From: Escherichia coli
GTDB taxonomy: Bacteria; Pseudomonadota; Gammaproteobacteria; Enterobacterales; Enterobacteriaceae
Strand: one strand, 5' to 3'
DNA: 64,000 nucleotides
Assembly (NCBI RefSeq): GCF_003334765.1
Contig: NZ_QOWT01000004.1
The notes under the pieces are model-generated. The model was not told the origin of the DNA, searched no databases, and saw only the letters and a program-made list of their open reading frames with translations. The position numbers and the translations under genes are program-made. Within the stretch, counting starts at the first letter, position 1. Each line of letters opens with the position of its first letter. Positions 10,277 through 12,964 of this stretch are shown piece by piece.

Positions 10277-11635
10277 ATGGAAAAAGACTATTTGAGAATG
10301 AGTAGTACTGTATTAGTGAGCTTATTGTTTGGGCTTGCTTTGGTTTTGGTGAATAGTTGGTTTAATCAGCCAGGCGTTGAGGAAGTTGTTCCACGATCAA
10401 CCTATCTGATGGTAATGATTGCTTTATTTTTTATCGATACTGTTGCATTTATTTTTATGCAGTTGTATTTCATTTATGACCGTAGGCAATTTTCAAACTG
10501 TGTACTTAGTTTGGCTTTTCTGAGTTGTTTGATTTACTTTGTTATAACCGTCATTATCATTCAGCAAATTATTGAGGAGCGTTTGACAAGCAGTGTTGTC
10601 CAAAATGACATTGCAATCTATTATTTGTTTCGTCAGATGAGTTTGTGCATATTAATATTTCTGGCATTGGTGAATAAAGTTAGTGAAAACACAAAACAGC
10701 GCAATTTATTTTCCAAAAAAATGACTTTGTGCATAAGTTTGTTTTTTGTTTTTGGGGGGCCGATAGTTGCTCACATACTTTCTAGTCATTATGAGAGCTA
10801 CAATTTACACATTGCCGAGTTAACCAATGAAAATGGTCAGGTGGTTTGGAAAGCCTCATATGTTACCATAATGATTTTCATGTGGTTAACCTTGCTTTCG
10901 GTTAATCTATACTTTAATGGTTTACGCTATGATATCTGGAATGGAGTGACGGTGATTGCTTTTTGTGCCGTACTGTACAATATCTCTCTGTTATTTATGA
11001 GCAGGTATAGCGTGTCCACTTGGTATATTAGTCGCACTATTGAAGTAGTCAGTAAGTTAACCGTTATGGTAATATTTATGTGCCATATATTCAGTGCGCT
11101 ACGAGTAACAAAGAACATTGCACATCGCGATCCCTTAACCAATATATTTAACAGAAATTATTTTTTTAATGAACTGACAGTTCAATCAGCATCAGCCCAA
11201 AAAACGCCTTATTGCGTCATGATTATGGATATCGACCACTTCAAAAAAGTCAACGACACCTGGGGGCATCCGGTTGGCGATCAGGTGATAAAAACAGTGG
11301 TGAATATCATTGGGAAAAGCATACGACCAGATGACCTTTTAGCGCGCGTCGGCGGCGAAGAGTTTGGCGTCTTGCTGACGGACATCGATACTGAACGTGC
11401 GAAAGCTTTAGCGGAAAGGATTCGGGAAAATGTTGAGCGTTTAACTGGCGATAATCCTGAATACGCTATACCACAAAAAGTGACGATTAGTATTGGCGCT
11501 GTTGTGACTCAGGAAAATGCGTTAAACCCAAATGAGATCTATCGACTGGCTGATAACGCACTTTACGAGGCGAAAGAGACCGGGCGTAATAAGGTGGTTG
11601 TGAGGGATGTGGTGAATTTTTGTGAGTCACCATAA
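10277..11635 (+). CDS. dgcT: Diguanylate cyclase DgcT (YcdT): N-terminal multi-TM sensor domain plus GGDEF domain
   Basis: The track ORF starts at 10205; the start is placed at the ATG at 10277 (MEKDYLRMSS) to give the 452-aa length recalled for K-12. C-terminal GGDEF domain with RVGGEEFGVLL active-site motif; divergent from pgaABCD. Confidence 0.88.
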   Translation: MEKDYLRMSSTVLVSLLFGLALVLVNSWFNQPGVEEVVPRSTYLMVMIALFFIDTVAFIFMQLYFIYDRRQFSNCVLSLAFLSCLIYFVITVIIIQQIIEERLTSSVVQNDIAIYYLFRQMSLCILIFLALVNKVSENTKQRNLFSKKMTLCISLFFVFGGPIVAHILSSHYESYNLHIAELTNENGQVVWKASYVTIMIFMWLTLLSVNLYFNGLRYDIWNGVTVIAFCAVLYNISLLFMSRYSVSTWYISRTIEVVSKLTVMVIFMCHIFSALRVTKNIAHRDPLTNIFNRNYFFNELTVQSASAQKTPYCVMIMDIDHFKKVNDTWGHPVGDQVIKTVVNIIGKSIRPDDLLARVGGEEFGVLLTDIDTERAKALAERIRENVERLTGDNPEYAIPQKVTISIGAVVTQENALNPNEIYRLADNALYEAKETGRNKVVVRDVVNFCESP

Positions 11636-11981
11636 AGCGGCCTGGCACACGCGTTTGATGGAAGACGGCGTTCAGGCAATGCGCGATTATCTTGCCGGAC
11701 TGGATATCGCTTCGCCAGAGCATCAGGTTCTGATGAACGTAACAGCAAAAAGCGAGGTCGCTCCGTCAATTATCAAAGAAAATCTCTCATTACACTTAAC
11801 TCATACGGTGAAATGGACTGAATCTCTCGATACATTTCTGAATATGCCAACCCCGGTAGCTTTCCTTGAAATAAGTAATAAGCCCTATTTGGGGAATATG
11901 TTAAATGATTTTGCTGGCGTGGATCAGCAACGAGTTATGCATTGTCGTAAAGCATTTAGTGATGCAAAGGTATTCAAATGA
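11622..11981 (+). pseudogene. ymdE: ymdE: FabD-like (malonyl-CoA:ACP transacylase C-terminal-like) gene fragment
   Basis: 119-codon ORF with a GTG start overlapping the dgcT stop; it resembles only the C-terminal portion of acyltransferases (VKWTESLDTF region) and lacks the catalytic N-terminal half. Annotated as a pseudogene/remnant in K-12 as far as I recall. Confidence 0.55.
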
Positions 11982-12964
11982 TTCCTGATTATTTAACTTT
12001 TATTCGCTTTCAGGATAAACGAAATCTGATATACATTTATGCTATTGGACTTATTCTGATAGGCTTTTATTGGAAGAATGCAGGGTTTACTTTTCCATCA
12101 GAGGATATTGGTGTAGTTAGTGGGATTCTGGCTCTGGTGCTGTATAATTTTATTTTTGATCTCAAGGCGTACTGGGCTTATAAATGCGTCACGAAGAATA
12201 TCGATTTTTCGTGGTTTAAGAAAAAGCAGAACCACAAAATAGAATTATTTCTTACACAACCTCTGGTGGCAGGATTTCTGTCGTTAATCATGTTGAGTGC
12301 AATGAGTTGGGGGCTATACCAGCTTCTACCCTCGTTATATGCGCTGTTCCTGATTTCGTTACTTGGGCCGTTGGTCATCTTTCTGCTGTTTCGGATGATC
12401 CGCACCAGTTATGTCAAGCAGGTCGCTATTTCAGTAGCGAAAAAAGTAAAATATAAAAGTCTGACTCGCTATGTGCTGCTTTCGGTGTGCATCTCAACGG
12501 TTGTTAACCTGCTTACTATCAGCCCGTTGCGTAACAGTGATTCTTTTGTGACAGAGGGGCAGTGGTTAACGTTTAAATCGATAATTGCATTGCTCATTCT
12601 TTGTGGCGTAGTGTTGGCGATTAATCTGTTTTTTCTGCGCTTCTCCAAGCGGTACGCTTTTCTGGGCAGGCTTTTTTTGCAGGAAATCGATCTGTTTTTC
12701 TCCAGTGAAAATGCGTTGTCGACCTTTTTTGCCAAGCCGCTTTGGCTTCGGTTATTCATATTGCTGGTTATTGAAGTGATGTGGATTACGCTGGTGTCGG
12801 TATTGGCAACGCTTGTAGAATGGCGGATTTGGTTTGAAGCCTATTTTTTACTCTGCTATGTACCGTGCTTAATTTACTATTTTTTCTATTGTCGATTCCT
12901 CTGGCATAACGATTTTATGATGGCATGTGACATGTATTTCCGTTGGGGGCATTTTAATAAGTGA
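11978..12964 (+). CDS. ycdU: Inner membrane protein YcdU (function unknown)
   Basis: 328-aa very hydrophobic AT-rich ORF overlapping the ymdE stop by 4 nt; length matches K-12 YcdU. Confidence 0.82.

Follow-up and report, generated by a model that had tools for sequence, protein, structure and literature searches.

The ymdE gene of Escherichia coli has been described as a pseudogene foreshortened by IS3 (PMC4951805; PMC5635171), and in MG1655 an IS3 copy lies between dgcT and ymdE (PMC5635171). O-island 47 (OI-47) measures 31,727 bp in EDL933 (PMC8565820), while in laboratory-evolved K-12 an IS3-mediated deletion of 26.5 kb, from ymdE to pyrC, has been reported (PMC8611074). The remnant as such is already known and already annotated as a pseudogene, and the feature is in this respect ordinary. 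The described processes closest to what we observe are the adjacent deletions caused by insertion sequences (IS) and their 'nearly precise excision'. The locus shares with them a fixed IS end, nested one-sided deletions and the lack of a target duplication, and shares with nearly precise excision the way in which the IS is lost, through short deletions with endpoints at micro-repeats a few bases beyond the element. It differs from the latter in that an identical junction is found here on two haplotypes.

We have analyzed this locus in a 64-kb stretch of E. coli DNA, referred to below as the window. Our data make it likely that ymdE is a FabD-like remnant produced by an IS3-anchored deletion of a genomic island, and that the IS3 copy was lost later.

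A reading frame with a junction-made 5′ end

In the window, dgcT (ycdT), encoding a GGDEF diguanylate cyclase, occupies positions 10277..11635 on the + strand, as mapped from the RefSeq CDS of K-12 MGY (L012 10877-12235). Its TAA stop codon lies at 11633-11635, the mechanical start of the ORF is a TTG at 10205, and it carries one SNP with respect to MG1655, at 10300 (Ile8Met). Further downstream on the same strand, ycdU (11978..12964 in the ORF listing) is an intact gene for a 328-aa multi-pass membrane protein. Between them, the ORF listing gives an ORF at 11622..11981 (+) with a GTG start at 11622, a TGA stop at 11981 and 119 codons (119 aa), in exact agreement with the preliminary description. 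The GTG sits 14 nt inside the end of dgcT, read in another frame, and the TGA overlaps the ATG of ycdU at 11978 as ATGA, the 4-nt overlap initially noted. That description also spoke of ymdE as fused onto the end of dgcT, which does not apply to the protein, given that the reading frame differs. A DgcT-YmdE protein fusion was accordingly rejected as a candidate: the frames are different and a stop codon stands in between.

ymdE proper starts at 11640 (11640..11981, +) and is a pseudogene fragment without its N terminus, comprising codons 201-313 and the stop codon from the gene of a 313-aa FabD-like malonyl-CoA:ACP transacylase paralogue. The preceding stretch (11622..11639, +) is a 5′ leader created by the junction, consisting of the GTG and the five codons after it (V/M-S-H-H-K-A). 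Its first 14 nt are the end of dgcT, in the other frame, and its last 4 nt are native dgcT-downstream sequence, the first six codons of the ORF being a product of the junction. Only 8 codons are open in frame 5′ of codon 201, and the Shine-Dalgarno sequence is poor (GAGGG, 15 nt ahead of the GTG). Natural junction alleles differ in whether the GTG is in frame; other natural IS3-free junctions are shifted by -1, +2 or +5 nt, which puts it out of frame. Because of this, the 5′ overlap with dgcT appears to be an accident of this particular junction. Hence, of the proposal that ymdE is translationally linked on both sides, the 3′ ATGA overlap stands, as inherited from the intact operon, while the 5′ link does not, and the GTG overlapping dgcT should not be annotated as a gene start.

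Regarding signals of transcription, a predictive scan gave no terminator-like site on the + strand from 10907 to 13127, hence none between dgcT and ycdU, and this absence is the sole use made of the scan. Promoter-like sites were as many as expected from shuffled sequence (9 vs 9.1), and the terminator-like sites (6, against 3.0 expected, sd 2.1) were not treated as significant.

ymdE as a probable remnant of a FabD-like gene of OI-47

A Pfam scan of the 119-aa ORF (including PF00698, Acyl_transf_1) returned no match even at E≤10, the fragment being too short a piece of PF00698. With Pfam blank, its identity was taken from NCBIfam and from direct alignment to the O157 gene. The NCBIfam fabD profile TIGR00128 matches residues 6-74 at profile positions 196-264 of 290 (E=1.1e-9), with 38.2 bits against a family cutoff of 260.9, and RefSeq labels the gene 'ACP S-malonyltransferase, incomplete, missing N-terminus'. 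From GCC (codon 201) through TGA, all 342 nt match K-12 ymdE exactly.

The full-length version is intact in E. coli O157:H7, at the end of OI-47, where it encodes a FabD-like 'ACP S-malonyltransferase' of 313 aa (WP_115801845.1). This protein has a complete Acyl_transf_1 domain (Pfam E=1.8e-24) with GHSVG at about residues 95-99. It scores 178.7 bits with TIGR00128, below the equivalog cutoff of 260.9, and is therefore a paralogue and not the housekeeping FabD. From residue 7 onward, the ORF of the window corresponds to its residues 201-313 with 2 substitutions (5 nt and 2 aa differences from 11640 against the O157 gene, L011 40240-41181), and in both cases ycdU comes next with the ATGA overlap, already present for the full-length gene in O157. 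What the window lacks is residues 1-200, including the GHSVG nucleophile motif.

End to end, the O157 parent aligns with PksC (5dz6, E=1e-32), DisD (3rgi) and E. coli FabD (1mla, E=1.3e-22), with the Ser and His motifs conserved, whereas the fragment of the window covers the last third of the domain only. PksC and DisD are discrete acyltransferases of trans-AT polyketide synthases. The catalytic His of the Ser-His dyad is retained as residue 9 of the ORF, encoded by the CAC codon at 11646..11648 (+) within the motif A-W-H-T-R-L-M; when the full-length O157 protein is aligned, its VSGAWHTRLM falls opposite VSGAFHSRYM and VSAAFHSRFM of PksC and DisD. The nucleophile motif GHSxG is absent from the ORF, and its O157 counterpart (GHSVGEYSA, about residues 93-101) lies 5′ of the break at codon 200. 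A complete acyltransferase fold takes about 290-310 residues, and the fragment holds residues 201-313 of 313. We conclude that ymdE is, to judge from these alignments, a non-functional C-terminal remnant of a FabD-like acyltransferase gene, predicted to be unable to act as an acyltransferase. The initial suggestion of a C-terminal remnant without the catalytic N-terminal half is thus borne out, both by the profile search, in which only the C-terminal part of the fabD profile matched (TIGR00128, E=1.1e-9), and by identity to O157 codons 201-313.

A family of complete small proteins would speak for a different origin. A word-indexed protein search of limited sensitivity gave 21 matches and, across diverse genomes, no homologues of full length (about 119 aa); nearly all of the matches are E. 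coli 'partial' fragments of 67-120 aa. The 138-aa match from Klebsiella aerogenes represents the C-terminal ORF in a fabD-like gene, itself frameshifted or at a contig end, beside a ycdU homologue. This type of search yields neither full-length relatives nor a length distribution of the family, and it was the genome context that led to the parent.

In O157, a 31.7-kb block separates the tenth nucleotide after the dgcT stop from nt 599 of the fabD-like gene. The window lacks the other roughly 31 kb of OI-47, with its EAL protein, fimbrial, two-partner secretion and ACP/KS/KR/DH genes, ABC transporter and LolA-like protein. ycdU is the last gene of the lipid/polyketide-like operon of OI-47, now orphaned directly 3′ of dgcT, and its pairing with a fabD-like gene is also seen in K. 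aerogenes, at about 40-57% identity. The state before IS3 would then be a 31.7-kb island and not the abutment of dgcT and ymdE.

IS3 is missing from the window together with flanking bases

Across all 64 kb, window and MG1655 are collinear at 99.98% identity, with 12 SNPs, one 1-nt indel and a 1266-bp gap, so the gene order is K-12-like and the strain is not MG1655, both as previously proposed. The IS3 proposed for MG1655 at this junction is indeed present there, as IS3D (1258 bp, in the K-12 MG1655 lineage), and absent here; MG1655 does not share the uninterrupted junction. The 1266 bp missing with respect to K-12 correspond to ATTT, IS3 (1258 bp) and GTGC or, equivalently, to GCATTT, IS3 and GT. 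Base-by-base comparison with K-12 places the deletion junction at 11640..11641, where a GC common to both flanks constitutes a 2-nt microhomology. The extra 1266 bp are carried by 25 out of the 25 best-matching genomes, and genome alignments break at query position 341/342, i.e. at the junction. Compared with MG1655 ymdE (b1028), the window keeps the 342 nt from codon 201 to TGA and the overlap with ycdU (ymdE and ycdU together show 0 differences from the K-12 haplotype), and lacks IS3D and 8 flanking bases. Instead of the GTG within dgcT, MG1655 ymdE has IS3-derived upstream codons.

These flanking bases bear on the direction of the change. K-12 keeps the native bases that the window has lost: the ATTT after dgcT, identical to O157, and the GT/GTGC of fabD-like codon 200-201. 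Besides, the bases flanking the K-12 IS3 are unlike (TTT and GTG) and thus do not form a 3-bp target duplication. A true empty site would have a single copy of the 3-bp target and the 8 native flanking bases that are absent from the window. Since K-12 keeps them, insertion into the junction of the window cannot yield the K-12 allele. The uninterrupted junction appears, on this comparison, to be a derived allele resulting from secondary loss of IS3.

Junction alleles form a series anchored at one IS3 end

We counted the alleles of this locus among 5426 complete genomes. The left junction, dgcT GCGGCATTT|IS3, was counted in 2300 genomes and the right junction of K-12 in 2195/5426, while IS3-free or IS3-remnant alleles are rare (about 28/5426). 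The identical left junction joins at least three right ends: fabD-like nt 414 (tcmA_3 and Z1323HEC0009), fabD-like nt 599 (K-12), and a point within the RtT repeats that follow ycdU (E. coli B, in which ymdE and ycdU are both lost). In these relatives of the window, which is itself IS-free, the left junction is constant, the right junctions vary and no target duplication is seen, a pattern that appears to be that of IS3-anchored adjacent deletions.

Among the alleles that have lost IS3, EC09 keeps 55 nt of the IS3 end beside nt 599, and 5CRE51, SCU-104 and B-1109 have IS3-free junctions with right ends 0-2 nt from the IS3 boundary. The exact junction of the window was also found in the finished natural genome 2013C-4974 and, as judged by length, in OkiPb01713. 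These two have a different SNP haplotype, and their closest relatives carry the nt-414 IS3 allele. The dgcT-side SNP comparison was based on the last five columns only, given a 1-nt frameshift in OkiPb01692. A possible precursor, an IS3|nt599 allele with the private SNPs of 2013C-4974, was searched for and none was found (best match 99.4%). The 2-nt microhomology alone does not account for different precursors giving identical endpoints.

Proposed history and alternative explanations

In the history that we favor, the ancestor would have had an island of about 31.7 kb, similar to OI-47, separating dgcT from ycdU, and an IS3 copy would have inserted 10 nt past the dgcT stop. This step is only inferred, because the postulated intermediate (IS3 end, TTT and native island sequence) is present in 0/5426 complete genomes. 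The comparison of alleles then suggests that one-sided, IS3-anchored adjacent deletions ran rightwards from the IS3 end to different points, the one of K-12 type stopping at fabD-like nt 599 and leaving ymdE-ycdU. Such deletions match the IS3-mediated deletion reported in the laboratory at the same locus (PMC8611074). Two IS3 copies recombining with each other would lead to the same outcome. Finally, in a close K-12 relative, a further 1266-bp deletion between two GC dinucleotides would have removed IS3 and 8 flanking bases. The structure of this deletion is observed directly; the most probable mechanism is replication slippage, or else illegitimate recombination, in the manner of a 'nearly precise excision'. 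As a result, the remnant would have come to lie directly after dgcT, gaining by accident an in-frame GTG that overlaps the dgcT end, and ycdU to lie downstream of dgcT with no predicted terminator between them.

One could argue, as the preliminary description did, that the uninterrupted dgcT-ymdE arrangement is the ancestral empty site and that MG1655 gained IS3 later. IS gain is, in general, the commoner direction of change, and MG1655 has the IS3 that the window lacks. However, the ATTT to the left and the GT(GC) to the right of the K-12 IS3 are native, as in O157, and could not be brought back by an insertion; no 3-bp target duplication flanks the K-12 copy; ymdE is a truncated island gene, so its abutment with dgcT must post-date the island; and the IS3 allele is found in 2300 genomes against about 28 with IS3-free or IS3-remnant alleles. 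We consider this reading practically untenable. A single large deletion between the imperfect repeats AAAGCGGC and GAGCGGTGC, independent of the K-12 IS3|nt599 allele, could also have produced the junction in an ancestor with the island or with an allele of the nt-414 type. Both ends in O157 carry a 5-nt microhomology, AGCGG, which would yield the 5CRE51 junction directly, and the junction of the window does occur on a non-K-12 haplotype with nt-414-allele relatives. Yet the window is of the K-12 haplotype (no differences in ymdE and ycdU, 99.98% identity over the 64 kb), all of its closest genomes carry IS3|nt599, and right ends no more than 2 nt from the IS3 boundary in five different alleles are unlikely for independent 31.7-kb deletions, which makes this origin very improbable.

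Draft assemblies typically break at this IS3 (PMC4951805), and no complete genome of K-12 haplotype in RefSeq has the junction of the window. So the absence of IS3 might not be biological, and reflect either a repeated IS that collapsed during assembly or scaffolding, or an engineered IS-free strain. Against a collapse, the gap is 1266 bp with a 2-nt microhomology, neither a clean removal of the 1258-bp IS nor an N-gap, and the identical junction exists in the finished natural genome 2013C-4974. An engineered IS-free K-12 origin was rejected on the 12 SNPs with respect to MG1655, which mean that the strain is not MG1655-derived, and on the gap not being a clean IS removal. Besides, DGF-298, the one genome-reduced strain compared, has far larger blocks removed here (PMC10652928). 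Altogether we regard such an artefact as quite unlikely, and a secondary loss of IS3 remains our preferred reading.

A separate question is whether truncated ymdE is maintained, as a translated small protein or as a leader ORF coupling translation into ycdU, instead of being a neutral remnant. None of the alleles examined has a disrupted ORF, the ATGA shared with ycdU persists, and the stretch between dgcT and ycdU is free of + strand terminator-like sites. Across phylogroup A, ymdE has no frameshifts or nonsense mutations, which was taken to suggest retained function (PMC4951805); there is evidence of its transcription, and ymdE-ycdU are among the core genes of mastitis isolates (PMC4951805). 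On the other hand, the fragment has neither the Ser nucleophile nor most of the fold, alleles differ in their 5′ end and start codon (several have no start 5′ of codon 201), there is no good Shine-Dalgarno sequence, and E. coli B lacks both ymdE and ycdU. No independent small-protein family was found, the matches being E. coli fragments and the frameshifted Klebsiella gene. The substitutions in the truncated alleles examined are all non-synonymous (4 against 0 synonymous), which, with so small a sample, we count as suggesting relaxed constraint on ymdE. Maintenance of the fragment thus seems highly doubtful.

A broader possibility, which we hold to be unlikely, is that an IS3 without target duplication has been lost recurrently with the same endpoints on unrelated haplotypes, implying a structured excision pathway, and that ycdU has been rewired into the dgcT (c-di-GMP/PGA biofilm) unit with ymdE as a coupled leader ORF. 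If true, excision could be guided, for example, by the terminal inverted repeats of IS3 or by the imperfect AAAGCGGC/GAGCGGTGC repeats.

According to these results, the annotation of ymdE should stay that of a pseudogene, and an IS-free junction should not be read as ancestral without checking its flanks. OI-47, an 'O-island' defined by comparison with K-12, would be absent from K-12 through an IS3-anchored deletion, for which the truncated gene that remains of the island is the evidence. The locus appears to offer a natural series of nested IS3 deletions together with rare IS3 losses, usable for studying IS3 excision.

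ymdE is the 3' end of an acyltransferase gene

The ymdE ORF runs on the + strand from a GTG at 11622 to a TGA at 11981 (119 codons), between dgcT (10277-11635) and ycdU (11978-12964). It starts within dgcT (TAA stop at 11633-11635), which it overlaps by 14 nt in a different frame, and the ymdE stop overlaps the ycdU ATG (11978) as ATGA. The preliminary description of the ORF is accurate. Using the NCBIfam fabD model, residues 6-74 of the ORF matched profile positions 196-264 of 290 (E=1.1e-9; 38 bits, cutoff 261), and a Pfam search of the ORF gave no match. In O157-type genomes, the same place is occupied by a gene for a 313-aa ‘ACP S-malonyltransferase’, and ycdU follows with an identical 4-nt overlap. 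From 11640 (GCC TGG CAC...), the window ORF corresponds to codons 201-313 of this gene, from which it differs by 5 nucleotides and 2 amino acids. The six preceding codons are a junction product, composed of the out-of-frame end of dgcT and a few intergenic bases.

The full-length O157 protein has a complete Acyl_transf_1 domain (E=1.8e-24) and can be aligned over its whole length with PksC and DisD, two discrete acyltransferases, and with structures of FabD. With 178.7 bits against the fabD equivalog (cutoff 260.9), it is a paralogue and not the housekeeping FabD. Its GHSVG nucleophile motif, at around residue 95, belongs to the part missing from ymdE, and the catalytic His (AWHTRLM) lies directly past the break and is kept. 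ymdE is thus a gene remnant, as had been proposed. A homologue search for a complete small-protein family, the alternative to this reading, found none: the matches were E. coli fragments annotated as partial, and a 138-aa match from Klebsiella aerogenes is the 3' ORF of a fabD-like gene that is frameshifted or at a contig end, beside a ycdU homologue. The fabD-like/ycdU pair is also found in K. aerogenes (L014 and L015).

Probable IS3-anchored deletions downstream of dgcT

In O157, the sequence 3' of the dgcT stop is AGCGGCATTTTAGCGGG..., and in strain 155 there are 25 further annotated genes between dgcT and the FabD-like gene. These comprise genes for an EAL-domain protein, a hypothetical protein, a winged-helix regulator and an SDR oxidoreductase; fimbrial genes and another hypothetical protein; a two-partner secretion pair; and all but the end of a lipid/polyketide-like cluster of ~15 kb (27371-42164 in L011, the strain 155 excerpt). 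This cluster contains acpS, SDR, FabZ-like, ACP and aminomethyltransferase-family genes, two ketosynthase genes, ABC transporter genes, hypothetical proteins and a LolA-like protein, its final genes being the FabD-like gene and then ycdU. The dgcT-to-FabD-like block is O-island 47, of 31,727 bp in EDL933 (PMC8565820), defined as O157-specific relative to K-12.

As the preliminary description stated, MG1655-lineage genomes carry a 1258-bp IS3 between dgcT and ymdE, with the transposase on the opposite strand. In MG1655, IS3D occupies 1094245-1095502 and the pseudogene ymdE occupies 1095505-1095846 (PMC5635171), and ymdE has been described as foreshortened by IS3 (PMC4951805). The K-12 junction reads ...AGCGGCATTT / IS3 / GTGCCTGGCAC...: native sequence reaches 10 nt past the dgcT stop on the left, and the right flank begins at nt 599 of the fabD-like gene. 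The 3 bases flanking IS3 are unlike (TTT versus GTG), so there is no target duplication in K-12.

In a classical series of IS-mediated adjacent deletions, one IS end stays fixed, the deletions are one-sided and nested, and there is no target duplication. The dgcT/IS3 allele series bears this signature. A constant left junction, GCGGCATTT/IS3, is combined with right sides at nt 599 (K-12), at nt 414 (a complete IS3 leaving a 528-nt fragment, in tcmA_3 and Z1323HEC0009) or within the RtT repeats on the far side of ycdU (E. coli B, which has lost both ymdE and ycdU). The nt-414 allele (1847-3633 in L018/L019, from tcmA_3 and Z1323HEC0009) is a second IS3-anchored allele and looks widespread. The series also includes a K-12 strain evolved in the laboratory, in which a 26.5-kb deletion from ymdE to pyrC was mediated by IS3 (PMC8611074).

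Among 5426 complete genomes, 2300 have the dgcT/IS3 left junction and 2195 the IS3/nt 599 right junction. The native sequence downstream of dgcT is uninterrupted in 389, the fabD-like sequence is unbroken across nt 599 in 1117 (an upper bound that includes nt-414 alleles), and dgcT and ymdE are in one place in 28. The postulated intermediate, IS3 adjoining an intact island, was found in none of the 5426, so we infer this first step. A product identical to that of adjacent deletion would be expected if two IS3 copies had recombined.

The RtT-like sRNA repeats are tandem ~181-bp units adjoining the tRNA-Ser gene serX (window 13083-13900) and account for a series of spurious ORFs, identical copies of 137 aa and 43 aa, on both strands. 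The unit number in the window is that of K-12; annotated units vary from none to at least 3 among the strain excerpts fetched.

The window allele and the probable loss of IS3

The window is collinear over all 64 kb with the MG1655-type genome MGY, except for 12 SNPs, one 1-nt A-run change and a 1266-bp gap at dgcT-ymdE. Therefore, it comes from a close K-12 relative, and its source is neither MG1655 nor an engineered derivative of MG1655; both the absence of IS3 and the non-MG1655 origin had been correctly anticipated. One SNP (10300, G versus T) gives Met (ATG) instead of Ile (ATT) at dgcT codon 8, another (19848, A-to-G) lies between the divergent genes csgD and csgB, in the curli regulatory region, and the others are at 13253, 13293, 13976, 39974, 40230, 42243, 45950, 46538, 48130 and 63880. 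The sole indel besides the IS3 gap is in the bssS-dinI intergenic A-run (37367, A9 versus A8). Taken together, the SNPs mark the source as a natural strain closely related to K-12, as opposed to a K-12 laboratory derivative. SY3626C1, from chicken meat, is the best RefSeq match and still has IS3.

The window junction, ...AGCG GC CTGGCAC..., is without ATTT (left) and GTGC (right), or without GCATTT and GT, the assignment of GC being ambiguous. An IS3 inserting here is unable to recreate these native bases; the junction is therefore derived, not ancestral, and is no true empty site. Hence, this part of the preliminary interpretation did not stand.

The extra 1266 bp is present in all 25 best matches to the window, and the ymdE and ycdU of the window are identical to those of K-12. 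The simplest path would be a 1266-bp deletion between two GC dinucleotides, taking IS3 and 8 flanking bases. Similar events with other endpoints are found in natural genomes: 5CRE51 (AAAGCG/GTGCC), SCU-104 (AAA/GTGCC), B-1109 (AAAGCGGCA/GTGCC) and EC09, with 55 nt of the IS3 end kept next to nt 599. CFIAFB and E110019 appear to carry analogous derivatives of the nt-414 allele, with microhomologies GCGG and GCTGGCGG. IS3 was most likely lost from the window allele through slippage or illegitimate recombination, as a ‘nearly precise excision’.

Among finished genomes, an exact copy of the window's junction was verified in 2013C-4974 alone; length and 99.9% identity make OkiPb01713 a probable second carrier. 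On either side of the junction, the SNP haplotype of both genomes is that of the nt-414 group, and the nt-414 allele is present in their nearest relatives. No IS3/nt 599 genomes sharing their private SNPs were found. Either the junction arose twice, perhaps from different precursors and with the imperfect repeats AAAGCGGC/GAGCGGTGC as a guide, or it was transferred on a short recombination tract. As a natural variant, the IS3-free allele is rare and of modest interest.

Expression and function of the remnant

ymdE is a feature already annotated and described. Its 3' overlap with ycdU dates from the intact operon, and its 5' GTG is allele-specific: in three of the IS3-free alleles the GTG is out of frame and there is no start codon upstream of codon 201. 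The closest Shine-Dalgarno-like motif, GAGGG, precedes the GTG by 15 nt. No terminator-like site was found on the + strand from 10907 to 13127, which makes read-through from dgcT into ycdU plausible in the window allele. A retained function of ymdE has been argued from the lack of disabling mutations and an enrichment in mastitis isolates (PMC4951805). The truncated alleles examined here, a small sample, showed 4 non-synonymous and 0 synonymous substitutions. The data favour a neutral remnant hitch-hiking with ycdU. At this locus, K-12 still has a truncated gene of O-island 47 (L011 9087-40837 versus window 11640), which shows that the island is missing from K-12 through an IS3-anchored deletion and that the difference is not simply one of acquisition by O157.
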